Below, piece by piece: positions 1,629 through 40,522 of a stretch of 42,600 nucleotides of DNA. The position numbers and the translations under genes were made by a program. The DNA comes from an uncultured Candidatus Saccharibacteria bacterium (lineage in GTDB: Bacteria; Patescibacteriota; Minisyncoccia; UBA6257; 2-01-FULL-56-20), in the NCBI GenBank assembly GCA_964645125.1, contig CAZXZC010000004.1, positions 1 to 42,600 on the forward strand, read 5' to 3'. Within the stretch, counting starts at the first letter, position 1; each line of letters starts with the position of its first letter. The notes under the pieces were generated by a model. It ran no database searches and was not told where the DNA came from. It worked only from the letters and a program-made list of their open reading frames with translations.

Positions 1629-1698
1629 CCGCGATATTTTTTATTAAGAGCGCTCCAAGGCCGCTAGGCCAGTCTTACGCTTAATAAAAAATATGCGA
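1629..1698. repeat. Conserved-core hairpin element, copy A (locus-specific AT-rich stem around GAGCGCTCCAAGGCCGCTAGGCCAGTCTTACGC)
   Basis: Left arm gcgatattttttattaag pairs with right arm cttaataaaaaatatgcg. The core starts at 1648. Confidence 0.85.
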
Positions 1699-5854: not shown

Positions 5855-5940
5855 ACCCACATACTTTGCTGCGGAGAGCGCTCCAAGGCCGCTAGGCCAG
5901 TCCTACTCTCCTTAGTCAAAGTATGTGGGTTTTATTGCAT
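5855..5940. repeat. Conserved-core hairpin element, copy B
   Basis: Stem acccacatactttg / caaagtatgtgggt. The core GAGCGCTCCAAGGCCGCTAGGCCAGTCCTACTC starts at 5876. The element begins 6 nt after the stop codon. Confidence 0.85.
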
Positions 5941-6094
5941 CTAAAGCACACATCCCAAGTCTTACGCTCCATAATGAAATCCTGTGGCTTTTGCGTATGA
6001 AAATTATTTTTAATTAGTAACGCAATGTTATATATGGGAGGGTGGAGAAAGGAAAATGCATTAAAACAAATTTTTCATTTTATATAGTAGCGCA

Positions 6095-9549: not shown

Positions 9550-10078
9550 GGGGTGAAGCCTGCCGAAAGATACGGAGGGCTGTTGCGCATACAGCCACAA
9601 ATCCATTTGCTGGATCCGTCTGGCGAGTGGCAGGCTTCAAAGACGGAAGACTTACCGGTTATGGGAGCCTGTCGCAGTTGAGAAACTGCGAGATCGAAGA
9701 GTAGAAAAAGATGTACACTCTGCGACAGGCTCAGGGTTTTAGGGTTGCTACAAAAAATCTCGTTGTTTTTTCATGGCTGTAGCCTCCTTTTTTTGGGTTA
9801 ATGCCATGAGTCGTCTCTCTCAGCCACATAAAATAGGTGGCACGTCTCGAGAGTTTTTTTAAGAAAAAATCCATGCTTGGCCGTTCTTCGAGTTTTGGAT
9901 CTGATTGATGACCCGTTTCGAATACTTGGTTGGGGTGATTTTGTTCTTATGACTCCGTGTGCAGGCCTAATTAGAGTGCCCTGCACTACCTCGGTTTGGC
10001 GTGGCTAGCCAAAATCGTCGGCCTTTTTCATGGCCTCCTCCTTTCCGGTTTTTTTGTTATCAACGAACTGTAAGTGCC

Positions 10079-10207: not shown

Positions 10208-11350
10208 ATGATTTCTTTTAAGGTTCAAAAACAGTCTAAGAAATCCGCAGCTCGCCTGGGGGTTCTTACGACTCCTCATGGGGAAGTTCAGACTCCATGC
10301 CTGGTGCCGGTGGCTACTCAGGCCACGGTGAAGGCATTGCCGCCTGATGTGGTAAAGGCTAAGACGAAGTCGAGCCTTTTGATATGCAATACCTTTCACC
10401 TACATTTAAAGCCAGGGGAGAAAACAGTGAAAAAACATGGGGGCTTGCATGAATTTATGCAGTGGGATGGGGCTTTAATGACGGATTCGGGGGGATTCCA
10501 GGTGTTTAGCCTGGGGTTTGGGCGAGACCTTTCGACGAATAAGGTTATAAAAAATGGAGCGAAGGTGCCTGAAGTTTTGCATGGTCGCCAACCACAACAC
10601 TTAAAGATTTCAGAAGAGGGGGTGTTGTTTCGTTCGCCGGTTGACGGGGCTCAGGTGTTTTTGGGGCCAAAAGAGTCGATAAAAATCCAGCAAGCATTGG
10701 GGGCTGACATTATTTATGCGTTTGATGAATGCCCGCCACCGTCAGCCAGTTATGAGTATGTAAAAAACTCGGTAGAGCGAACGCACCGGTGGCTTACGCG
10801 GTGTATTAAGGCAAAAACGAGCAAACAGGCATTGTATGGGATTGTGCAGGGTGGGCGTTATAAGGACTTGCGTGCGCTAAGCGCGAAGTTTGTGGCAGCA
10901 ACAGACGTCGATGGGTTTGGAATTGGGGGTGAGTTTGGGAATAGTAAAACAGATATGACTAAAATGCTCTCTGCGGTTATTCCGCATTTGCCAGCACATA
11001 AGCCTCGGCATTTGCTGGGGATTGGCCACCCGGAAGATATTATTCCGATTATTAAAAGCGGGGTGGATACGTTTGACTGTATTGTGCCGACGCATTACGC
11101 CCGGCACGGCACTGCCTTTACGAATCGAGGGCGTGTGACAATTGGGAATGCAAAGTTCAAAAATTCTTTAGAGCCGCTTGACCCTAAGTGTGATTGTGAA
11201 GTATGTGCTACGTATACGAAAAGTTATGTGCACCACTTGTTTAAGGCACATGAGATTACGGCCTTACAGTACCTTTCGCTCCATAACATTTACTTCTTTC
11301 AAACCTATATCGAACAGATAAGGAAAAAAATTCAAAAGGGATTGCTTTAA
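10208..11350 (+). CDS. tgt: Queuine tRNA-ribosyltransferase (tRNA-guanine transglycosylase)
   Basis: Contains TDSGGFQV and a CDC..C...SY.HHL zinc site. queA follows. Confidence 0.95.
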   Translation: MISFKVQKQSKKSAARLGVLTTPHGEVQTPCLVPVATQATVKALPPDVVKAKTKSSLLICNTFHLHLKPGEKTVKKHGGLHEFMQWDGALMTDSGGFQVFSLGFGRDLSTNKVIKNGAKVPEVLHGRQPQHLKISEEGVLFRSPVDGAQVFLGPKESIKIQQALGADIIYAFDECPPPSASYEYVKNSVERTHRWLTRCIKAKTSKQALYGIVQGGRYKDLRALSAKFVAATDVDGFGIGGEFGNSKTDMTKMLSAVIPHLPAHKPRHLLGIGHPEDIIPIIKSGVDTFDCIVPTHYARHGTAFTNRGRVTIGNAKFKNSLEPLDPKCDCEVCATYTKSYVHHLFKAHEITALQYLSLHNIYFFQTYIEQIRKKIQKGLL

Positions 11351-11417
11351 GAAAAATTTTTCTCGAGAGCGCTCAAGGGTGCTTGCCCAAGCTTTACTCT
11401 CTCGTAAATTTTTTCTT
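11349..11417. repeat. Conserved-core hairpin element, copy F (variant core GAGCGCTCAAGGGTGCTTGCCCAAGCTTTACTC)
   Basis: Stem aagaaaaatttttctcgagag / ctctctcgtaaattttttctt. The left arm contains the tgt stop codon. The inner mini-hairpin is changed compensatorily to GGGT-GCTT-GCCC. Confidence 0.8.
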
Positions 11418-12470: not shown

Positions 12471-12606
12471 GCAAGCCAATAGCCAAAAGGGTATGGGGTT
12501 TAGTGAAACTGCGAACAAACTGAAGTATCAATGCATTTGATTCTTCTTACTATTGGCCATTGGCTAAACCCTATTGGCTTGCTAAATGGCCACACCCTAC
12601 ACCCTC
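12471..12606. repeat. GCCAATAG-word palindromic repeat (family 1)
   Basis: GCAAGCCAATAG (12471-12482) pairs perfectly with CTATTGGCTTGC (12571-12582). Additional CTATTGGC words occur at 12550 and 12571. Confidence 0.85.
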
Positions 12607-12956: not shown

Positions 12957-13430
12957 ATGATTACTATTGGAATGAATGCACCGGATTTTTCATTACCGGA
13001 TCAAGATGGGGCAGTTCACACTCTCAAAGAGTATAAAGGCAAGTGGTTACTCATTTATTTTTACCCAAAAGATAATACGCCGGGGTGTACAAAAGAGGCA
13101 TGCAGTTTGCGTGACTTATTTCCAAACTTTCGAAAACAGCATATGGAGGTTGTTGGGGTGAGTGCGGATAGTGTTGCATCGCATAAAAAATTTGCATTGG
13201 CCTACAACTTACCATTTACGCTGTTGGCTGATACGGAGCGTGATATGATACAGGCTTACGGGGTGTGGCAAAAAAAGAAGTTTATGGGCAAAGAATATAT
13301 GGGTATCGTGCGCAGTTCATTTTTAATAGACCCAAAAGGGAAAATCGCGAAAGTGTATGAAAAAGTGAAACCGGAGTTGCATGGGAAAGAAGTGGAAAAG
13401 GACTTACAGGGTCTAGCCAATGGCCAATAG
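12957..13430 (+). CDS. bcp: Thioredoxin-dependent peroxiredoxin Bcp
   Basis: Contains FYPKDNTPGCT.EAC. TGgTATGAT at 12942-12950 ends 6 nt before the ATG, implying a leaderless mRNA. Confidence 0.93.
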   Translation: MITIGMNAPDFSLPDQDGAVHTLKEYKGKWLLIYFYPKDNTPGCTKEACSLRDLFPNFRKQHMEVVGVSADSVASHKKFALAYNLPFTLLADTERDMIQAYGVWQKKKFMGKEYMGIVRSSFLIDPKGKIAKVYEKVKPELHGKEVEKDLQGLANGQ

Positions 13431-13492
13431 GGTGTAGTAAGCAATGAAAAATGTTTCTTTGATTTCACTATTGGCTAAACCCTATTTGGCTA
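13411..13492. repeat. GCCAATAG-word palindromic repeat (family 1) overlapping the bcp 3' end
   Basis: ctagccaatggccaatag encodes the last residues LANGQ plus the TAG stop. The right arm is ctattggctaaaccctatttggcta. Confidence 0.8.
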
Positions 13493-13505: not shown

Positions 13506-14339
13506 ATGAAGCCATTAATTGGTGGGCATGTGTCAGCAGCGGGTGGGGCGTTTAAGGCATTTGGGAATGCTGCCACTATTGGTGCATCTGCAATTCAAAT
13601 ATTTGGTGCCTCCCCCCAGTCGTGGCGGACTAAATTGCCTGATGCGGCGGACGCGGCAAAATTTCAGGCTGCGTGGAAGGCGAGTGAGGTGAAGGCTGTG
13701 TATTTACATGCAGCATACCTCGTAAATTTGGCTACTGAAAATGATGAACTCTATGAAAAATCGATTACGAATTTGAGTGAGCATTTGGCTATTGCCAAAG
13801 CACTTGGTGCGAATGGACTTATTTTCCATATTGGTTCAGGCGAGAACATGAAGCGAGTAGTTGCGGGCATGAAGCAGACGCTTAAAAACGTGCCTGGCAC
13901 GACGCAACTTATTATTGAAAACAGCGCGGCTGGCGGGAAAAAGGTGGGTGGGAAGCCTGAAGATATTGGGGCGATTATGAATTCGGTTAAGTCTCCTCGA
14001 GTGAAGGTGTGCTTGGATACGGCGCATATTTTTGAGGCAGGGGAGATTGAAAGCTACACACAGCCCAACATTAAAAAATTATTTGATCGAATTGAAGCAT
14101 CTATTGGAGTGGAGAACTTAGTGGCCATGCATGTGAATGATTCGAAAACTCCGTTTAACTCGCACCATGACCGACATGAAAATATTGGGCAGGGGCATAT
14201 TGGCTTGGACGGGTTTAAAAACTTGGCGAAAGAAAAGCGAACGCACCATGTGGCATGGTTGTTGGAGGTGCCGGGGATGGAAGGCAACGGACCAGATAAG
14301 GAGAATGTGGATATTTTGAAGAAACTCTTTGTTGGTTGA
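13506..14339 (+). CDS. nfo: Endonuclease IV (deoxyribonuclease IV)
   Basis: Contains the H..YL.NL, FH.GS, CLDT.H.F and LE.P motif series. TATACT at 13493-13498 lies 7 nt before the ATG. Confidence 0.93.
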   Translation: MKPLIGGHVSAAGGAFKAFGNAATIGASAIQIFGASPQSWRTKLPDAADAAKFQAAWKASEVKAVYLHAAYLVNLATENDELYEKSITNLSEHLAIAKALGANGLIFHIGSGENMKRVVAGMKQTLKNVPGTTQLIIENSAAGGKKVGGKPEDIGAIMNSVKSPRVKVCLDTAHIFEAGEIESYTQPNIKKLFDRIEASIGVENLVAMHVNDSKTPFNSHHDRHENIGQGHIGLDGFKNLAKEKRTHHVAWLLEVPGMEGNGPDKENVDILKKLFVG

Positions 14340-14416
14340 GACAATAATACCCTTGTCATAGAGCGCTCCAAGGCCGCTTGGCCGGTCTTACTCTAAGCCA
14401 AGGGTATTATTGTCTC
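14338..14416. repeat. Conserved-core hairpin element, copy C
   Basis: Perfect 18-bp stem GAGACAATAATACCCTTG / CAAGGGTATTATTGTCTC. The left arm includes the last two bases of the nfo stop codon. The core GAGCGCTCCAAGGCCGCTTGGCCGGTCTTACTC starts at 14361. Confidence 0.9.
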
Positions 14417-14715
14417 CAATTTATTTACTTCTTTTTTCAAAATATTTGTGGAGTGAAGGATGGAAGAAAAAAACAACGGCAACTTGCCCAAGCTTTACTC
14501 TCTTAAAAACTTTATAAAAATAAATGAAGGCATGCTTTCTTTCGAAATATCCCGGGGGTGGAGGTGTAAGAAGAAGGCAGCAGCGCCAGGCCAAGGTTTA
14601 CTCTACTCGAAACAATATTATCCATTTTTTTATATAAATTTCTTTGCAAAATATCGTTTGGAGTGAGGATGGAGGACAAATACAAAAAGGCCAAAATATT
14701 TGCTATAATGTTTTT

Positions 14716-14839
14716 TAGTGAGAGCCGATTTATTATTATCGCGGTAGTTAGTCGGCTTTGATGTGCGTTTTGTGATTTATCAGTGTGTTTTTCTATTTTT
14801 GGTTTCGCCATCGACGCCCCCCGGTCGATGGCTTTTTTT
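14716..14839 (+). ncRNA. Candidate ~125-nt U-rich sRNA
   Basis: TGcTATAAT at 14701-14709. Internal hairpin AGCCGA..TCGGCT. Terminator GCCATCGAC-8 nt-GTCGATGGC plus T7. No ORF. Confidence 0.45.
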
Positions 14840-15117
14840 ATTGACGATTTTTTCATAATTGGGTAGGCTTGTTTTGAAAGAGGTTTTCTCCCTGCCTTTT
14901 TCATTTACAATTAAATAGGTGGATATCCAGGAGCAATTCTGGAAATGACACGCTTTGTGTTTGTGGCGCATGGCTACATGAAATGGAATATTTTCCTCCA
15001 TACCTGAGCTATACAGCCTGCCGAAGTTTACACCGCGTAAACTTATCTATAACTTTTCAACCATTCGATCGCTTTCAATCTGTTCAGTGTCAAGCCCATA
15101 TTTCATGGTTTTACCAG

Positions 15118-15146
15118 CCAGCGTATTTTTATGCGCTGGTTTTTTT
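15118..15146 (+). terminator. Intrinsic terminator
   Basis: CCAGCG-10 nt-CGCTGG followed by TTTTTTT. Confidence 0.65.
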
Positions 15147-15290
15147 GACTTCAGGATCCTACTTCGGTATTCTTAAACTCTACAGCTTCTTGAGAACTCC
15201 ATAAACCAACCCGAAGAATTTCTTTTGCGATGCAGGGAATTATTGGCAGGGGAGATTCTTCTTAACCAGAATTGTTTCATAGGGGGTTTT

Positions 15291-15404
15291 ATGCAAGGAA
15301 TTTTTCTTTGCGGAAAACAACTCGTACATGCAACCGACCTTTCCGTTTGCCTGGGTGAATGTCCAGGTGAACGTGAAACGGTCATTACCGGAAGGGAAGT
15401 TTGA
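15291..15404 (+). CDS. Candidate 37-aa Cys-containing micro-protein (family member P2)
   Basis: AGGGGG, 4 nt, ATG. Product is MQGIFLCGKQLVHATDLSVCLGECPGERETVITGREV. A T7 run lies 14 nt after the stop. Paralogous to 15441-15584. Confidence 0.45.
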   Translation: MQGIFLCGKQLVHATDLSVCLGECPGERETVITGREV

Positions 15405-15440
15405 CCCACTGGTCGGACTTTTTTTACGGTAGGGAGTAAA

Positions 15441-15584
15441 ATGATGACAACATCGAATCTTGTGCGTGGTGCGCCCATTATTAAATACCCGGCTGGATCC
15501 TTTCAATCCCAATGTCCGGGCGAGAGTGGGTATGGCTGTGGCGAAGGTGTCCCGTACCGAGTTGGTGGGTGCTGCTTGAACTGA
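15441..15584 (+). CDS. Candidate 47-aa Cys-rich micro-protein (family member X)
   Basis: GGGAG, 4 nt, ATG. Product is MMTTSNLVRGAPIIKYPAGSFQSQCPGESGYGCGEGVPYRVGGCCLN. The substitution pattern against its paralogues is synonymous. Frame +2 remains open to 15649. Confidence 0.5.
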   Translation: MMTTSNLVRGAPIIKYPAGSFQSQCPGESGYGCGEGVPYRVGGCCLN

Positions 15585-15673
15585 TCACGCCTGTTGGCAT
15601 CGGTCTAGGCACGCCCCCTTGTTTTTGGTGCTTCGCTTGCCGTAAGTGAAGTTGGTTTAAACCCTGTTTACCC

Positions 15674-15717
15674 CCCCCATAGAAGACGTATATTCTTTTA
15701 TGGGGGCTTTCTTTTTT
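15674..15717 (+). terminator. Intrinsic terminator
   Basis: CCCCCATAGAAG-9 nt-CTTTTATGGGGG followed by CTTTCTTTTTT. Confidence 0.75.
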
Positions 15718-16052
15718 GATTTGATTTTCATGTTTTTTTTGCTAGGATTTTATTGCGGTTGCATTGAAATTTGGTTACTCAGAACAAAAAGGGCAGCGGC
15801 ATGTAGTTATTAAGGCTGCTTCACGTATCCTTTATGATTTGTCCTTCGTGGCATTTCAGCTGGGTAATCTGGAGCTGTTTCCTGTGAAGGCATGAACGCG
15901 CTTCTTTGCCTGGGGACCGCTTCTATCCTGTAATTTCTTGTGACTGTTTCCAGGCATCGCCTGATGTCTTTTGTGTAACTATAGATTTGGAACTCTTTTT
16001 TGTTGGTTAGAAAGAGTAATGTGTTGTTGATTTTTCAATGAATGTTTCTCCT

Positions 16053-16090
16053 GGCCACGTTTGATAACCGACCGTGGCCTTTTTATTTAT
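16053..16090 (+). terminator. Intrinsic terminator closing island R
   Basis: GGCCACG-13 nt-CGTGGCC followed by TTTTTATTT. Confidence 0.7.
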
Positions 16091-17367: not shown

Positions 17368-17643
17368 ATGAAGCTTTACGTAGGGAACCTTCCCTGGAGC
17401 ACCACGAATGACATTTTGCGCGACTTGTTCTCGCAAAAGGGCATGGTAACTTCAGCTACCGTTCTCATGGGCCCTGATGGCCGTTCACGTGGCTTTGGTT
17501 TTGTAGAGTTCGGCAACGACTCAGAAGCCCAGGCAGCGATTGACGCCTTCAATGGCTACGAGCTTGATGGTCGTAAATTGACCGTCAACGAGGCTCGACC
17601 AAAGACCGAAGGCGGTATGGGTCGTGGCCCTCGCTTCCGCTAA
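17368..17643 (+). CDS. RRM (RNP-1) type RNA-binding protein
   Basis: Contains KLYVGNL (RNP-2) and RGFGFVEF (RNP-1), with a Gly/Arg tail. Confidence 0.93.
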   Translation: MKLYVGNLPWSTTNDILRDLFSQKGMVTSATVLMGPDGRSRGFGFVEFGNDSEAQAAIDAFNGYELDGRKLTVNEARPKTEGGMGRGPRFR

Positions 17644-19685: not shown

Positions 19686-20306
19686 ATGGTGGTAACGAAG
19701 AAGTTTACCAAGGAGGTTAAAGACAAGCTAAGAAAAGGGGCTGTGGGGGTTATCCCAACTGATACGTTGTATGGCATTGTTGCAAATGCCTTGCACGAAC
19801 ATTCGGTGGAGCGAGTGTATAAGGCGCGCAAGCGTACGCCCACGAAGCCAATGATCATCTTGCTGCCCGGGATGTCGTATTTGAAAAAATTCGGTGTTTT
19901 TTTGTCGCCGCAGCTTACTCGTATTGTAAAGCGATTTTGGCCAGGCAAAATTAGCATTATTTTCCCGGTGCCGCGAGGGTCTTTTTCGTATTTGCATCGG
20001 GGCCGAAACAGCTTGGCATTTCGGGTGCCGGATAACCCGCGTATATTAAAAGTTTTGCAGCGTACGGGGCCGTTGGTAGCCCCCAGCGCGAACGTAGAGG
20101 GTTCAAAACCAGCGGCGACTGTTAAGGAGGCGTTTGATTATTTTGATGATGCAATTGATTTTTATGTTGATTCGGGTCGGCTCTACGGGAAGCCATCGAC
20201 GCTTATTTCATTTCCAAGCGATCATGAGGTGGTAGTTTTGCGCGAGGGTTCGATACCGGCAAAAACCATTCAAAAAGTGGCGGGATTTGATCGGGTCGTC
20301 AAGTAA
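19686..20306 (+). CDS. tsaC: L-threonylcarbamoyladenylate synthase (YrdC/Sua5 family)
   Basis: Contains G.IPTDTLYG and LVAPSAN..G..P motifs. Confidence 0.9.
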   Translation: MVVTKKFTKEVKDKLRKGAVGVIPTDTLYGIVANALHEHSVERVYKARKRTPTKPMIILLPGMSYLKKFGVFLSPQLTRIVKRFWPGKISIIFPVPRGSFSYLHRGRNSLAFRVPDNPRILKVLQRTGPLVAPSANVEGSKPAATVKEAFDYFDDAIDFYVDSGRLYGKPSTLISFPSDHEVVVLREGSIPAKTIQKVAGFDRVVK

Positions 20307-20362
20307 TATTTCTCCTGGAGCGCTCCGGGCCGCTAGGCCAAGTCTTACGCCAGGAGAAATAT
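20306..20362. repeat. Conserved-core hairpin element, copy D
   Basis: Stem ATATTTCTCCTGG / CCAGGAGAAATAT starts at the last base of the stop codon. The core is GAGCGCTCCGGGCCGCTAGGCCAAGTCTTACGC. Confidence 0.88.
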
Positions 20363-20459: not shown

Positions 20460-20816
20460 ATGCCAACACTACAAGAGATTTTTGATCGTATCCAAAAGAC
20501 AAAACAGGAAATTAAAGAATTAAACGGACTGTATAAAGCAGAGCTTACTTCTTTAAATGAGTACGAGGAATTAAAGGAAAAACTCCAGGGACATAAAATG
20601 CGTAAAATTCAGATTGAAAAAGCGGTGCAAGAAAAGCTGCAAGCTGAATTTGTGAAGTACGATGCGCTAAAGACTGCACTGGCTGATGATCAACAGTTAT
20701 TGGCTGACTTGGCTTTATCTACATACCTTAAAGGGGAGAAAGTTGAGGTTGTGGATGCAACAAACGCACCACACGCACCGTTTTTCAAGGTGGCGTTTAA
20801 GAAGATGCGTTCTTAA
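20460..20816 (+). CDS. Hypothetical coiled-coil protein
   Basis: 118-aa Lys/Glu/Leu-rich ORF. TATACT at 20447-20452 lies 7 nt upstream of the ATG. Confidence 0.65.
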   Translation: MPTLQEIFDRIQKTKQEIKELNGLYKAELTSLNEYEELKEKLQGHKMRKIQIEKAVQEKLQAEFVKYDALKTALADDQQLLADLALSTYLKGEKVEVVDATNAPHAPFFKVAFKKMRS

Positions 20817-20840
20817 ATATTTCGGAAGGAAATATTTAAG

Positions 20841-20920
20841 ATTATGCGATTAATCAATTAATGAATTGCGCATTAGGACATACACTTTTAATTCGTTAAT
20901 CCGCAATATATTAATTTGTT
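20841..20920. repeat. TTAATGAATTGCG-word palindromic repeat (family 3)
   Basis: ttttaattcgttaatccgcaatatattaat is homologous to 6797-6826. The left arm is attaatgaattgcgcatta. Confidence 0.75.
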
Positions 20921-20962
20921 CATTCATACAACATTACCTGCGTAATGTTGTATTATTAAGCT

Positions 20963-32552: not shown

Positions 32553-32625
32553 GAAAGAATTATGAATTAAGGTTTCCGCGTAATGCATTAAAAAACCCTT
32601 ATTCTTTATTCTCCATTCTTAATTC
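32553..32625. repeat. AAGAAT/ATGAAT-word palindromic repeat (family 2), abutting the holB ATG
   Basis: Loop ccgcgtaATGCATTAAAAAA. Arms gaaagaattatgaattaaggttt and acccttattctttattctccattcttaattc. Confidence 0.8.
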
Positions 32626-33465
32626 ATGAGTCAAAATTTTTTATATAAAAATCCGATTGTTGCTCGACTTGAAGAACAAGCAAAGATTAATACGCTTTCC
32701 CATGCCTACTTGTTTTTTGGCCCTTGGCTTGTGGGAAAACGCACATTTGGATTGCGGTTAGCACGTATTCTTGAGCATGGCGACGGGGACACGGAAAAAC
32801 CGCTTCACGACATATTATCTCTCTCTTCTGAAATGGGGGTGGAAGCAGCGCGTGAAGTGAAATCATTTTTATATACTCGACCAGCATATTCAAAACGCCG
32901 TACTGTGTTGTTTTGTGCCATTGATGGAGCAACTCGCGTTACTTCGGATGCACTTTTGAAAACCATAGAAGAGCCGCATCGTGACACGCTCATTCTCTTA
33001 ACAGCCACGCATGTTGATGCGGTACCAGACACTATTCTTTCGCGAGTTCAAAGCGTGTATTTTGCGCCCGTTGAATCTTCGCGCATAGAGTCGTGGCTTA
33101 CCGAAAAAACGAAAGTGCGTGGGCTGACGTCATCAGCTTCACATATTCATGCAGCTGTTGCGCAGGCAGGAGGACTCCCAGGTCTTGCCTGGCGACTCCT
33201 GCATGATGCAGAATTTCTCGCAACACTTACTACTGCTCAAAAATATCTTCGCACCACGCCTGCTTCTGTTTCAGCGTTTGTAAAAGATATGCTTGAAACA
33301 CACGAAGATTTTTCATTGCCGATATTTTTAGATTTCCTATTATTGGCGCTTTCTTTTGACCCCAAAACACCTTCTGCGTTTTTGCAAAAAACTATTGCCT
33401 TAGCACGCGATGCACGTGAATATAACCTTAATCCAAAGTTGCAACTTATTGCACTGAAGCAGTGA
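32626..33465 (+). CDS. holB: DNA polymerase III delta' subunit
   Basis: Contains HAYLF.GP...GK, LLKT.EEP and SR motifs. Confidence 0.85.
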   Translation: MSQNFLYKNPIVARLEEQAKINTLSHAYLFFGPWLVGKRTFGLRLARILEHGDGDTEKPLHDILSLSSEMGVEAAREVKSFLYTRPAYSKRRTVLFCAIDGATRVTSDALLKTIEEPHRDTLILLTATHVDAVPDTILSRVQSVYFAPVESSRIESWLTEKTKVRGLTSSASHIHAAVAQAGGLPGLAWRLLHDAEFLATLTTAQKYLRTTPASVSAFVKDMLETHEDFSLPIFLDFLLLALSFDPKTPSAFLQKTIALARDAREYNLNPKLQLIALKQ

Positions 33466-35839: not shown

Positions 35840-35957
35840 AAACAATTCTTACTCCTTTCGCTTCTAATGCGCGTGAGATTCGTGTTGATTGTCAAAATCA
35901 AACTCTACTTAGGGTAATAAAAAAACGTGCTTTTGCCAAATTACAGAAAAATACATG

Positions 35958-36026
35958 AACTAAGAATTGAGAATAATGAATAAAGGTTCCTGCATTAAAA
36001 ACCTTAATTCTTACTTCTTTATTCTA
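35958..36026. repeat. AAGAAT/ATGAAT-word palindromic repeat (family 2)
   Basis: Left arm aactaagaattgagaataatgaataaaggtt, loop cctgcattaaaa, right arm aaccttaattcttacttctttattctatt. Overlaps the ABC-F stop codon. Confidence 0.8.
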
Positions 36027-38104: not shown

Positions 38105-39844
38105 CTATTTCGGATTCTGTTGGCGCCACATGGCGGCGTACAGGCCAGATTTTTTCAACAACTGGTCATGGCTGCCGCTTTCAATAATTGAACCGTTTTC
38201 TAACACATGAATGGTGTTGGCATGGGCTACCGTGGAGAGGCGGTGGGCGACAATGACAATAATCATGTCTTTTCTGGTAGTGCCAATTTGCTTTATGGCG
38301 TCGGTGATTTCGTTTTCGGTGAGTGAGTCTAGGCTACTGGTTGCTTCGTCGAAGATAATAAGCTGTGGTTCACGCAAGAGCGCGCGAGCAATGGCTAAGC
38401 GTTGTTTTTGGCCACCGGAGATTTTAATGCCCGACTCACCGATGCGAGTATCCAACCCCAAGCCCGTATTTTCAATAATCGCCAGAGCCGATGCGGCGCG
38501 CAGTGCGCTCATGCACTGATCATCTGTGGCATCGGGACGCACGAACAGCAAATTCTCGCGTATCGTGCCGGCAAAGAGCTGCGTGTCTTGGGATACGTAG
38601 CCTATTTTTTTACGCAATGTAGCGTAGTCAATGGTGGTGGCCGAGATTTCGTTTATACGAATCTCACCTTCGGTTGGCTTGTACAACCCCACCATGGTTT
38701 TTAATAAGGTGCTTTTACCGGCACCGGATGGGCCTACAAACGCAACGGTTTTTCCTTTTGGTATTTCAAAACTCACACCGCGCAGGGATGCTGCCTGGTT
38801 TTGACTATAGGCAAACGTGACGCCTTGGTAGTTGATTGATTCTATTTCGGTTATGGCGCGAGCGTTGCGAGGTTGTTCTTCGGGCTTTGTATCGAGGATT
38901 TTTTGCACGGTTTCCATGCTTGCTTTGGCTTCTTGGTAGCTTGCTGAAACGGTACTGACTTCTGAAAGCGGGTTAAAGAGCGCAAACGAGTAAAACAATA
39001 ATGAGAAAAATTGCCCCACACTGATTTCACCGGAAAATATAAGGTAGAGCATCAAAAACATGATTGCCGTGCGCGTAGCGTTTAAGGTTGTCCCTTGCAC
39101 AAAACTGAGCGCACGGATGAGTCGCACTTTATGGAGCTCCAGATCGAGAATCTTGCCGATTAAACCTTGCAAGCGAGTGGTTTCTTGGCCTTCGAGTCCT
39201 AAACTTTTAACCAACTCCACGTTACGCAATGTTTCAGTGGCGGACCCGGACAAATCGGCGGTTTGAGATACGATATTTTTTTGAATAGTTTTAATACGCC
39301 TGCCAATTAAAAAGCTGCTCACTCCCACAATAGGAATGATGAGGAAGTAGGCGAGTCCGATTTTCCAACTCACCCAAAAGCTGTAGGCCATTACAAAGAC
39401 AACACCCACCAATGAAAGGAATATGGTGTTTACGAATGTGGCGATGAGTTTTTGGCTGTCTTGCTTGGCCTTGGCAAGTTTTTGCAAGAGTTCACCGGAG
39501 CGCTGGTCTTCGAACACGCTAAAGGGGAGTGAAAAGGCATGAGCGATACTATCCGAATAGAGTTTTGAGCCAACAAGTTCCGTAGTTGCGTTTACGTAAT
39601 AGTCTTGGAAATTTTTGGCAACACGAGAAATAAAGGCAACCGTCATTGACGCAAGAAGGAGCAAGCCCACCCCGCCGATAAATTCTTTCGGTGAGTACTG
39701 GCCTATTTTAGTGGCGTAATTATCGATCAGTAGGCGAAATATTTGTGGATCAAGGAGTGAAAATACCTGGTTGATGGTGGCAAGCACTAAGGCCAATAAA
39801 AGCTGCTTTTTGTATTGTTTGATATAGGAGAATAATAAAGACAT
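38105..39844 (-). CDS. ABC exporter, fused permease/ATPase (MsbA/type I exporter-like)
   Basis: Six N-terminal TM helices. Contains GPSGAGKST, LSGGQKQR and IFDEATS motifs. Confidence 0.93.
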   Translation of the reverse strand: MSLLFSYIKQYKKQLLLALVLATINQVFSLLDPQIFRLLIDNYATKIGQYSPKEFIGGVGLLLLASMTVAFISRVAKNFQDYYVNATTELVGSKLYSDSIAHAFSLPFSVFEDQRSGELLQKLAKAKQDSQKLIATFVNTIFLSLVGVVFVMAYSFWVSWKIGLAYFLIIPIVGVSSFLIGRRIKTIQKNIVSQTADLSGSATETLRNVELVKSLGLEGQETTRLQGLIGKILDLELHKVRLIRALSFVQGTTLNATRTAIMFLMLYLIFSGEISVGQFFSLLFYSFALFNPLSEVSTVSASYQEAKASMETVQKILDTKPEEQPRNARAITEIESINYQGVTFAYSQNQAASLRGVSFEIPKGKTVAFVGPSGAGKSTLLKTMVGLYKPTEGEIRINEISATTIDYATLRKKIGYVSQDTQLFAGTIRENLLFVRPDATDDQCMSALRAASALAIIENTGLGLDTRIGESGIKISGGQKQRLAIARALLREPQLIIFDEATSSLDSLTENEITDAIKQIGTTRKDMIIVIVAHRLSTVAHANTIHVLENGSIIESGSHDQLLKKSGLYAAMWRQQNPK

Positions 39845-39875
39845 AGAATTAGAATCTGCGACGTTAAATTTTTAA

Positions 39876-39946
39876 AGCTATTCTATTTTATGAAGAGCGC
39901 TCCGGGGCCGCTAGGCCAGTCTTACGCTTCATACAATAGAATAGCT
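39876..39946. repeat. Conserved-core hairpin element, copy E
   Basis: 20-bp stem AGCTATTCTATTTTATGAAG / CTTCATACAATAGAATAGCT with one mismatch. The core GAGCGCTCCGGGGCCGCTAGGCCAGTCTTACGC has the same + orientation although the flanking genes are on the minus strand. Confidence 0.88.
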
Positions 39947-40012
39947 TTGTGTGTATATTTTCTTTATTTTATATGATTTGACGATAAATTCAAAAAGGTA
40001 GGAGGAATGAAA

Positions 40013-40051: not shown

Positions 40052-40522
40052 TTACGCGTGCGCGGCCAGAGAGCGGTTAGGAATATACTTGCCGAGCACT
40101 ACTTCTTGATCAATGTTTTGGACTTCAAATCCAACAAAAAGCTTGTATTTTTTGTGTAAGGGAATTATTCGCTTTTTCTTTTTATTTGGCGCGTGGCAAT
40201 GTACTTTGTAAAACATTTTAATCACATCCTCGGCTTTTATTTCTTGTGATGTTCCTTTTTTCGTAGAGCACCGTGTTTTAGTGAGTGGAATTAAGATGTT
40301 AAGTGCAGTGTTACCTTCTACTACTTGAAACATGGTAATATCCACGCTTTCAAGATACCCAAGGACATCTTGCAGTAATTCTTCGAGTGATTGTTTTACA
40401 TAGTGCGCATTGCGAGTCGCTATGAAAATTGCCGCCTTTACGCATTCGTCGCAAATCATTTCGTTTTCTTTTTTGGCTTCTTTCAAATTACGTAAATTTC
40501 TTCTCAGGTTTCGGTCGCGCAT
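40052..40522 (-). CDS. Hypothetical basic protein, paralogue of 41287-41655
   Basis: AAGGAG, 9 nt, ATG. Shares ..LEELLQDVLGYLES..ILIP..EIK.. with the 41287 protein. Confidence 0.7.
   Translation of the reverse strand: MRDRNLRRNLRNLKEAKKENEMICDECVKAAIFIATRNAHYVKQSLEELLQDVLGYLESVDITMFQVVEGNTALNILIPLTKTRCSTKKGTSQEIKAEDVIKMFYKVHCHAPNKKKKRIIPLHKKYKLFVGFEVQNIDQEVVLGKYIPNRSLAAHA

Follow-up and report, generated by a model that had tools for sequence, protein, structure and literature searches.

A Patescibacteria-restricted family of dispersed intergenic hairpins with a conserved tip and site-specific arms

The DNA analysed here, hereafter the window, is a stretch of 42,600 nucleotides of a Parcubacteria/Paceibacterota-like bacterial chromosome (contig CAZXZC010000004.1, forward strand) with a G+C content of ~44% and a GC skew that is positive throughout. 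Its genes are of the housekeeping kind and include those for FKBP, xseA, an rsmE-like protein, SIMPL, two HhH-GPD glycosylases, tgt, queA, ahpC, nfo, DUF167, a prmC-like protein, an RRM protein, typA, tsaC, cdaA, zwf, pgi, recO, mreB, holB, frr, rseP, tdk, ABC transporters, and tRNA-Gln. Among Tgt proteins, the nearest matches (69–70% identical) come from metagenome-assembled genomes (MAGs) of Parcubacteria/Paceibacterota, so the source is a member of the Patescibacteria (candidate phyla radiation) without close sequenced relatives. Six copies of a hairpin lie in the intergenic spaces of the window, each with the same short sequence at its tip, here called the module, and each with arms of its own (Table 1). 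The structure, distribution, and possible role of this hairpin family are the subject of this work.

The module is 29 nt long and reads GCGCTCC-(1-2)-GGCC-GCTN-GGCC-(1-2)-GTCYTAC. The strand that carries GCGCTCC..GTCYTAC, which is the + strand in the window, is called the module strand, and its opposite the complementary strand. A covariance model was built from 60 examples and scored at every position of the window with filters off. This recovered exactly six copies, all on the + strand (E 6e-20 to 4e-11), and the next-best match had E ~0.08. A degenerate 33-mer core, allowed at most one mismatch, had four matches in the window and none in 100 shuffles, and the folding z-scores of the six copies relative to shuffles ranged from -2.4 to -8.4. 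Each core sits at the tip of a stem with arms of 13–26 nt that are 92–100% complementary; arm 11-mers have no meaningful recurrence elsewhere in the window, and the arms are unrelated between copies. The first-pass annotation of this DNA had described a conserved core in the loops of locus-specific stems, flanked by inverted repeats unrelated between loci, and had proposed the covariance-model search. Both parts of that description are borne out, as is its remark that a conserved tip on variable paired arms reverses the design of repetitive extragenic palindromic (REP) sequences and of miniature inverted-repeat transposable elements (MITEs).

Copy 1 is located 20 nt past the stop of the FKBP gene (1609), and copy 2 begins 6 nt past the stop of the SIMPL/DUF541 gene (5849). 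The left arms of copies 3, 4, and 5 overlap the stop codons of tgt, nfo, and tsaC, respectively; these overlaps and the 6-nt distance of copy 2 had been read correctly before. Copy 6 lies between two minus-strand genes (an msbA-like gene that starts at 39844 and an upstream gene with its stop at 40052), so that the complementary strand is the sense strand there. The mini-hairpin within the tip of copy 3 carries a compensatory change to GGGT-GCTT-GCCC, and the inner arms of this copy (CTCGAGA / TCTCTCG) contain a tandem U·C/C·U mismatch that equals G·A/A·G on the complementary strand. Copy 5 has the tip variant CCGGGCC..GGCCAAGTC, the commonest form in other genomes. Both the compensatory variant and a copy among minus-strand genes had been noticed previously and are real, but they are the copies at 11349 and 39876-39946 and not those that had been lettered F and E, since the letters were permuted. 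In the partial copy downstream of copy 4, 21 nt match copy 3 without a difference (local score 18, where shuffles reached at most 14). Four decayed cores had been proposed; the one at 14488 is supported by this match and the one at ~5957 is plausible, but those at ~14580 and ~12694 are indistinguishable from chance. Truncation at the 5' side was considered as a retro-element signature and discarded, as the three 3' fragments of the window have no counterpart in other genomes.

Table 1. Hairpin copies and module fragments in the window, and exact-pattern copies on a complete chromosome.
Feature	Coordinates	Strand	Covariance-model match	Details
Copy 1, whole hairpin	1629-1698	+	1636-1692	Module 1650-1678; arms 1634-1648 / 1680-1694, 15 nt, 100% complementary
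Copy 2, whole hairpin	5855-5930	+	5864-5920	Module 5878-5906, GTCCTAC variant; outer arms 5855-5868 / 5917-5930, 14 nt, 100% complementary
Copy 3, whole hairpin	11349-11417	+	11355-11411	Module 11369-11397; occupies the tgt/queA spacer; left arm overlaps the tgt stop codon
Copy 4, whole hairpin	14338-14416	+	14349-14405	Module 14363-14391; arms 26 nt, 92% complementary; left arm overlaps the nfo stop (14337-14339)
Copy 5, whole hairpin	20306-20362	+	20306-20362	Module 20320-20348; arms 13 nt, 100% complementary; left arm overlaps the final base of the tsaC stop
Copy 6, whole hairpin	39874-39948	+	39883-39939	Module 39897-39925; arms 22 nt, 95% complementary
Partial copy, 3' part of module only	14478-14503	+		GGCA-ACT-TGCC mini-hairpin, then CAAGCTTTAC and TCTCT
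Short 3' module fragment, CCAAGTCTTACGC	5955-5967	+		13/13 exact match, borderline alignment score; 25 nt downstream of copy 2
OY970216.1, complete chromosome, 804,691 bp (L063, L064, L097)	~252.1 kb, 255.3 kb, 454.3 kb, 645.9 kb	-, +, -, -		Exact-pattern copies, at least four

One genome per bacterial and archaeal species was scanned with the pattern GCGCTC-N1-4-GGCCGCTNGGCC-N1-3-GTCYTAC. Among the matches listed, the module is found at at least 119 loci, all of them in named Patescibacteria MAGs or genomes or in unclassified bacterial MAGs. The family-wide counts given below rest on these 119 loci, with up to 8 kb of sequence context around the copies (L-numbers are the locus labels of this analysis). 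The named carriers among these matches are Saccharibacteria (including a Nanosyncoccus MAG, L048), Paceibacterota/Paceibacteria, Parcubacteria, Kaiserbacteria, Adlerbacteria, Peregrinibacteria/Peribacteria, and Minisyncoccia. At every listed locus, complementary arms enclose the module, and these arms vary between loci. Multiple copies are present in FK3.bin18 (at least 11 loci), a Peribacteria MAG (at least eight), SPRUCE 530 (at least seven), and the complete chromosome OY970216.1. Two full copies lie 72 nt apart in L041 (1793-1930), and a local tandem duplication in L067 (~2468-2590) repeats the 3' part of the tip together with the right arm once, as a 43-nt unit.

No copies were found in 700 kb around the nfo orthologues of ~80 metagenomic relatives or in the three nearest syntenic contigs. 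The module also had no matches in 2.9 million viral contigs of IMG/VR, and a phage origin was rejected for that reason. Within the window, Rfam 15 gave nothing at gathering score, and at permissive thresholds (E up to 10) it gave only generic hairpin look-alikes far below those thresholds, such as hepatitis B virus epsilon and plant microRNA precursors. Searches of the published literature by sequence fragments and keywords found no description of the module. These hairpins are a family of dispersed intergenic elements restricted to Patescibacteria, and the family is apparently undescribed.

The two outer strands of the tip, GCGCTCC and GTCYTAC, are essentially invariant across the family, with about 20% of copies reading CCTAC. 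The linkers that join them to the mini-hairpin always total 3 nt, which gives two tip variants (CC-G-GGCC..GGCC-AA-GTC and CC-AA-GGCC..GGCC-G/A-GTC). On the complementary strand the tip reads 5'-GUARGAC-(1-2)-GGCC-NAGC-GGCC-(1-2)-GGAGCGC-3', where two purine-rich strands face each other across a 4-bp mini-hairpin with the loop NAGC. In three genomes the GGCC/GGCC stem of the mini-hairpin is compensatorily changed to GGGC/GCCC, in copy 3 of the window it is GGGT/GCCC, and in L088 a different hairpin takes its place. Because this stem is replaceable, the conserved entity is the strand pair around it, i.e., an internal-loop module. Assignments of the tip to the kink-turn, sarcin-ricin, and UAA/GAN motifs were tried by hand, and none was in register with the arms. 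A variant tip was also observed in L074 (1717-1771) and L092 (~5355), with RATTCAAC as the 3' strand in place of AAGTCTTAC and GCGCTC-GGGCC as the 5' strand.

The arms are AT-rich and have a median length of ~28 nt, reaching 40 nt or more in 28 of 110 hairpins; they form ~28 pairs, compared with ~16 in plain hairpins. No 12-mer is shared with any other hairpin in 106 of the 119. Among the 106 distinct sequences, the two arms pair in 82% of cells, compared with 53% in shuffles and 34–51% with the partner slid, and all 14 modelled inner pairs vary on both sides. The inner 5–24 nt are common within a genome or lineage (e.g., GAAAAAGTGT/tip/CCACTTTTTC, CCTCCTCAGCTCGG/tip/CCTCGTTCGGAGGA, and AAAANCGGTC/tip/TACCGNTTTT) and the outer parts are unique; the copies in the window have only RGA/tip/KCT in common. 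An A-tract on the 5' arm with a T-tract on the 3' arm, 3–9 nt from the tip, is present in 49 of 118 copies (42%), and the reverse arrangement in 13–14 (11–12%). A derivation of the arms from nearby sequence was rejected, since arm 11- or 12-mers recur neither in the window nor in the same locus. Their capture as foreign spacers was also set aside after two long arms had no match in IMG/VR, a weak test limited to these two arms. The arms are selected only for pairing, and the tip is under strong purifying selection.

Mismatches in the arms are distributed very unequally between the two strands. Read on the module strand, there are 132 C·A/A·C and ~136 pyrimidine·pyrimidine mismatches (T·C/C·T 106, C·C 20, and T·T 10), with 40 G·T and 14 purine·purine as the minor classes. 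In a stricter test on 37 hairpins without a common arm 7-mer, which disregarded the inner 8 positions beside the tip, the counts were 33 C·A against 4 G·T and 20 pyrimidine·pyrimidine against 2 purine·purine, and a per-locus sign test gave 26:1 (p = 4e-7). On the complementary strand these mismatches become G·U, G·A, and G·G, which structured single strands tolerate or use, and this argues that folding is selected for on the complementary strand. The recurrent CUCG/CUCG and TTC/TTC of the module strand are, correspondingly, CGAG/CGAG (tandem G·A) and GAA/GAA on its complement, and the outer arms show the asymmetry as well. In nearest-neighbour energy the complementary strand is the more stable one at 88 of 113 loci when only the arms are folded and at 97 of 118 when only the tip is.

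Plain hairpins served as controls and are symmetric. In 110 gene-end hairpins read in gene sense, G·T and C·A numbered 35 and 41 and purine·purine and pyrimidine·pyrimidine 28 and 19; in 241 hairpins read on the G-rich strand, the corresponding counts were 106 vs. 99 and 77 vs. 86. In the module-bearing hairpins the asymmetry is unchanged whether the adjoining gene is co-oriented, opposed, or absent, and for either sign of the local GC skew (31:4 loci where positive, 18:0 where negative). A mutation or repair bias of replication or transcription was therefore rejected as its cause, given that it is the same for both GC-skew signs and both gene orientations and absent in plain hairpins. For the same reasons, the asymmetry belongs to the polarity of the element itself, and it is the complementary strand whose folding is under selection.

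The gene order tgt-queA-ahpC-nfo-...-DUF167-methylase is kept in the nearest relatives used for synteny (L200/L201 and L202), although, with the nfo product absent from the records searched and a closest Tgt at 70% identity, these comparisons are deep ones only. In these relatives the tgt/queA spacer is 5 nt (TAA GAAAT ATG and TAA TCATC ATG), compared with 82 nt in the window, where it consists of hairpin 3 and a further 15 nt; there is likewise no hairpin after their nfo stop codons. Since these sites had no prior hairpin, whole hairpins, arms included, were gained. Other orthologous loci show retention. Where the flanks on both sides are 67–75% identical, the module is identical at 27–29 of 29 positions, i.e., above the neighbouring coding DNA. 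The arms of L030 and L053 were inherited with a compensatory double change (GG..CC to AA..TT), and L059/L028 form a similar pair. Such inherited arms evolve at about the rate of their flanks and thus do not hypermutate. In L030/L034 and L105/L107 the arms are entirely different on flanks of 72–73% identity, which indicates replacement or re-insertion at the same spot. Target-site duplications were not found; a small apparent excess of flanking direct repeats was traced to the conserved TTC/TTC internal loop. The hairpin can persist at the same site over long divergence.

The hairpins are intergenic, and their foot is closest to a gene end on the left side of the module strand. In most cases that have a co-oriented open reading frame (ORF) there, the foot lies between -6 and +12 nt from its stop codon (median ~5 nt), and the spacing at the opposite side is looser. 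Upstream genes share the orientation of the module strand about 2:1 (56:32 and 38:16; 33:15 or 26:18 in unambiguous co-directional contexts), and roughly a third of the copies are antisense to the adjoining gene. At 72 of 106 loci (p = 3e-4) the module strand coincides with the G-rich, leading one, and the bias is still 31:11 after the gene-strand effect is removed. The uniform orientation recorded earlier thus holds for the six copies of the window, but it is the extreme of a bias that elsewhere amounts to roughly 70%. A T-run of at least four within 10 nt after the whole hairpin is present in 14 of 115 cases (12%) in module orientation and in 3 of 115 (3%) in complementary orientation. An adjacent cognate gene was rejected: among 877 neighbouring ORFs that were clustered, no family occurs in more than 10 of 119 loci, and all genes of the window are housekeeping. 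A promoter of the element's own on the complementary strand was rejected as well, with no positional enrichment of -10-like hexamers and a window scan at background.

From these patterns we tentatively favour, at somewhat less than an even chance, the view of a dispersed, REP-like hairpin that acts at gene ends through its tip, a putative RNA recognition module specific to one strand. Its functional form is probably single-stranded, with the tip as the recognition site of a conserved factor. That form would be a single strand of complementary polarity, most likely RNA, in which the arms would need only to pair and could hence tolerate G·U, tandem G·A, and GAA/GAA loops, while the tip would be the module recognized by a conserved trans-acting factor. 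The foot of the hairpin abuts the stop codon of a gene that in most cases is encoded on the other strand, and an A-tract/U-tract is often found beside the tip. So placed, the hairpin may be a polar, factor-assisted transcript-end element at which transcription entering the gene from the antisense or convergent direction would be stopped or marked; the sense-oriented minority of copies would serve as an ordinary 3'-end hairpin. New copies would arise by duplication of whole hairpins in the manner of REP sequences or MITEs, after which the arms would drift compensatorily and the tip would be held by selection. We favour an RNA role at gene ends because of the purine-rich loops and G·U pairs, the long conservation at fixed sites, and the layout of the A- and U-tracts. 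A polar, factor-assisted terminator or insulator is proposed because the commonest arrangement faces transcription that returns toward the upstream stop codon. Of the earlier proposals, that of a displayed recognition site is in keeping with how extremely the tip is conserved, both across the superphylum and at orthologous loci.

Several observations weigh against an RNA of complementary polarity. There is no promoter-like signal upstream in that orientation, so that such an RNA would need read-through or antisense transcription, and T-tracts after the whole hairpin are rarer there (3/115) than in module orientation (14/115). If transcription ended at the inner U-tract, the outer 3' arm would be excluded from the transcript, yet the outer arms show the strand asymmetry. 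Single-stranded DNA (ssDNA) likewise has G·T and G·A as its most stable mismatches, and for this reason the mismatch spectrum cannot separate RNA from ssDNA. The patchy spread, with zero copies in the 700 kb of nfo-orthologous loci and in the nearest relatives, looks mobile or accessory and unlike that of a housekeeping signal. Finally, the origin of the arms, 106 of 119 of which are unique and none copied from nearby sequence, is unexplained under every model considered.

A serious alternative, nearly as likely as the favoured view, is that the complementary strand folds as ssDNA and that the hairpin belongs to a non-autonomous mobile element, with a logic like that of attC sites, REP sequences with their REP-associated tyrosine transposases (RAYTs), or the ends of IS200/IS605 but outside all of those families. 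An enzyme from another place in the genome would recognize the complementary-strand hairpin and its tip and would move or copy whole hairpins, and the orientation bias would keep the fold-competent strand on the less exposed side (the leading-strand template, the transcribed strand). Such a model needs no promoter, and it accommodates a polarity that follows the element and not host transcription or replication. The gain of whole hairpins where relatives have none, the patchy and multi-copy distribution with lineage-specific families of inner arms, and the complete replacement of arms at some orthologous sites (L030 vs. L034 and L105 vs. L107) all point in its direction. So does the replication bias, by which the fold-competent strand is usually the leading-strand template; the same is reported for the bottom strands of attC sites in chromosomal integrons. 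What speaks against ssDNA mobility is that no transposase-like or other family recurs beside the hairpins (at most 10/119 loci, with housekeeping genes in the window), that target-site duplications are absent, and that the module is not on viral contigs. In addition, the tip is conserved across Patescibacteria classes and better than the coding flanks, which is unusual for sites of mobile elements, and long arms with several purine-rich internal loops resemble structured RNA more.

Two further accounts start from terminators and had both been raised in the first-pass annotation. In one of them, which we consider improbable, the module strand is itself the functional RNA, a 3'-end terminator or stabilizer of the upstream gene that displays a pyrimidine-rich 29-nt loop to an RNA-binding protein, such as the RRM protein; the C·A and pyrimidine·pyrimidine mismatches would then be selected disruptions, e.g., for escape from RNase III. 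The tight abutment of the foot on the left-hand stop codon, the ~2:1 co-orientation of the upstream gene, and the relative excess of T-tracts in module orientation would all be expected of it, and an RRM protein is indeed encoded in the window, as had been reported, although its gene (17368-17643) adjoins no hairpin copy. A display on sense-transcript terminators is, however, disfavoured by the mismatches, which favour the complementary strand, by the third of copies that are antisense to the adjoining gene and yet equally conserved with the same asymmetry, and by the paucity of 3' T-tracts (none in 88% of copies). The tandem U·C and the C·A that are conserved on the module strand are unusual in a functional RNA helix, where their complements G·A and G·U are typical; the tip folds less well on this strand; and the plain gene-end hairpins of the same genomes have no such disruptions. 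The other account, which we judge very unlikely, is a ~30–45-nt element that inserts in the apical loop of pre-existing long terminator hairpins, so that the arms would be old terminators. Long, perfect, small-loop hairpins are indeed common regardless of the module (7–18 per 100 kb vs. ~0.3 in shuffles), the window has such hairpins at 1751-1788 and 20811-20841, and the inner arms (5–14 nt) are common within a genome when the outer arms are not. The comparison of orthologous sites that had been suggested revealed gains of whole hairpins and no insertion into existing terminators: the nearest relatives have no hairpin in the 5-nt tgt/queA spacer or the nfo 3' flank, and so nothing for a loop-targeting element to enter. 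The outer arms moreover carry a module-linked mismatch asymmetry that plain hairpins lack, and they are longer than plain hairpins (~28 vs. 16 pairs).

More broadly, and with a chance that we consider substantial though well below even, the hairpins could be the dispersed cis-acting part of a Patescibacteria-wide, undescribed system with arms that are self-templated for each new copy, whether the element is an insulator or a mobile one. A conserved factor would then recognize the purine-rich internal-loop module in the form of one particular strand, be it RNA or ssDNA, and one arm might be made from the other, e.g., by snap-back or template-switch copying. Such self-templated synthesis would explain arms that are unique and yet paired. 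If any of this is true, the family would represent a transcription insulator of a new, polar and factor-dependent kind or, alternatively, a new class of mobile element borne on hairpins. The puzzle it poses is that arms unique to each site are nonetheless paired and that the strand polarity ignores transcription and replication. A module conserved better than the neighbouring protein genes and present in many copies per genome points to a conserved recognition partner. Patescibacteria account for a large share of bacterial diversity, have tiny cells and tiny genomes, and their gene expression is almost unstudied. A tip that binds protein would provide a handle on termination and RNA processing in organisms where classical signals are poorly defined, and a mobile DNA would reveal a new mode of hairpin propagation.

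The window has several other repeats and spacers of note. The ~1.6 kb between nfo and the DUF167 gene (14420-16060) has no convincing ORF and no Rfam match, and the syntenic spacer in L200 is ~750 nt. It holds three canonical + strand T-tract terminators (14807, 15116, and 15674), one partial module copy, and small internal duplications (14420/14629, 14457/14666, and 14488/14591). The plain hairpin at 1751-1788, located 53 nt downstream of copy 1, is a perfect 19-bp palindrome without spacer (AAAACCACTCTTTGGTGAA/TTCACCAAAGAGTGGTTTT, centre GAATTC); other long plain hairpins are found at 20811-20841 and 20926-20953, and the frequency of 7–18 per 100 kb refers to long perfect plain hairpins in the Patescibacteria loci examined. 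A second repeat (..ATTGGC..TAAACCCTATT) is present at 12544-12575, 13455-13486, and 13408-13430, directly on both sides of ahpC (12957-13430) and once inverted; the queA/ahpC spacer is ~490 nt in the window vs. 27 nt in the nearest relative. A third small family consists of inverted-repeat structures at 32557-32632 and 35957-36017 that are ~80% identical over ~60 nt (GAGAATWATGAATWAAGGTTYC..TTAAAAACCYTWATTCTT..), one immediately upstream of holB, the other in the space that separates tdk from an ABC-F gene. An inverted repeat at 9665-9732 has perfect 13-nt arms (GAGCCTGTCGCAG / CTGCGACAGGCTC) with 42 nt between them and is unlike the module.

Among known systems, the hairpins resemble REP sequences and their composites, bacterial interspersed mosaic elements (BIMEs) and REPINs, in being short, extragenic, multi-copy, mostly 3' of genes, and able to persist vertically. 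REP elements are thought to act on the 3' ends of messenger RNA or to be bound by host proteins. In REP elements, however, the palindromic stem is the conserved repeat and the loop is free, whereas here the tip is conserved and the arms are unique (106/119). REP sequences also vary between species, whereas the module tip is the same across classes of a superphylum. No GTAG is found at the foot of these hairpins, only the TTC/TTC internal loop in some families, and GTARG occurs only inside the complementary-strand tip. No RAYT (Y1 HUH transposase) was seen in the loci of up to 8 kb around the copies. MITEs are similarly small, non-coding, multi-copy, and flanked by inverted repeats, and the lineage-specific inner arms suggest copying within a genome; unlike in MITEs, the terminal inverted repeats are not conserved between copies and there are no target-site duplications. 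We know of no parent insertion sequence for the hairpin family. Because the element lacks the defining features of REP, BIME, and MITE and is nevertheless short, extragenic, and multi-copy, it belongs with the interspersed extragenic hairpin repeats in the general sense. It differs from CRISPR-like arrays in that its copies are dispersed singly and two long arms have no IMG/VR match, the latter being a weak test.

Integron attC sites are also hairpins of variable sequence and conserved structure that directly follow ORFs and have a replication-linked orientation bias. In both cases one defined strand folds, which in attC is that complementary to the upstream gene and here is seen at 26:1 loci, a shared property that is not proof of membership. 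The R''/R' boxes of attC are conserved at the foot and the tip varies, whereas here none of 117 copies has the boxes (RYYYAAC, GTTRRRY) and the tip is conserved; attC sites are organized in arrays of promoterless cassettes beside an intI gene, whereas here the neighbours are housekeeping genes syntenic with those of hairpin-free relatives. Intrinsic terminators, including bidirectional ones, share the position at gene ends and the A-tract/T-tract beside the tip (42% of copies). They differ in having a G+C-rich stem, a 3–8-nt loop, and then a U-tract, in place of the 29-nt loop and long AT-rich arms seen here; a T-tract follows the hairpin in only 12% (+) or 3% (complement) of cases, and the window has canonical terminators besides. 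The combination of conserved loop and variable stem further recalls the origins of rolling-circle replicons and CRESS-DNA viruses (conserved nonanucleotide loop) and the ssoA single-strand origins (CS-6 TAGCGT terminal loop), a resemblance that we take as a lead and not as a relationship. The module-strand loop ends in AAGTCTTAC, fitting NAGTNTTAC, and the complementary apical loop reads TAGCG. Such origins occur once per replicon beside a rep gene, whereas here many copies are dispersed with no rep-like neighbour, the nonamer-like AAGTCTTAC is on the strand opposite the favoured folder, and the ~20% of copies with CCTAC depart from it. Set against these systems, what is novel and unexpected to specialists is a 29-nt non-coding sequence conserved across Patescibacteria on hairpins whose polarity is independent of transcription and replication.

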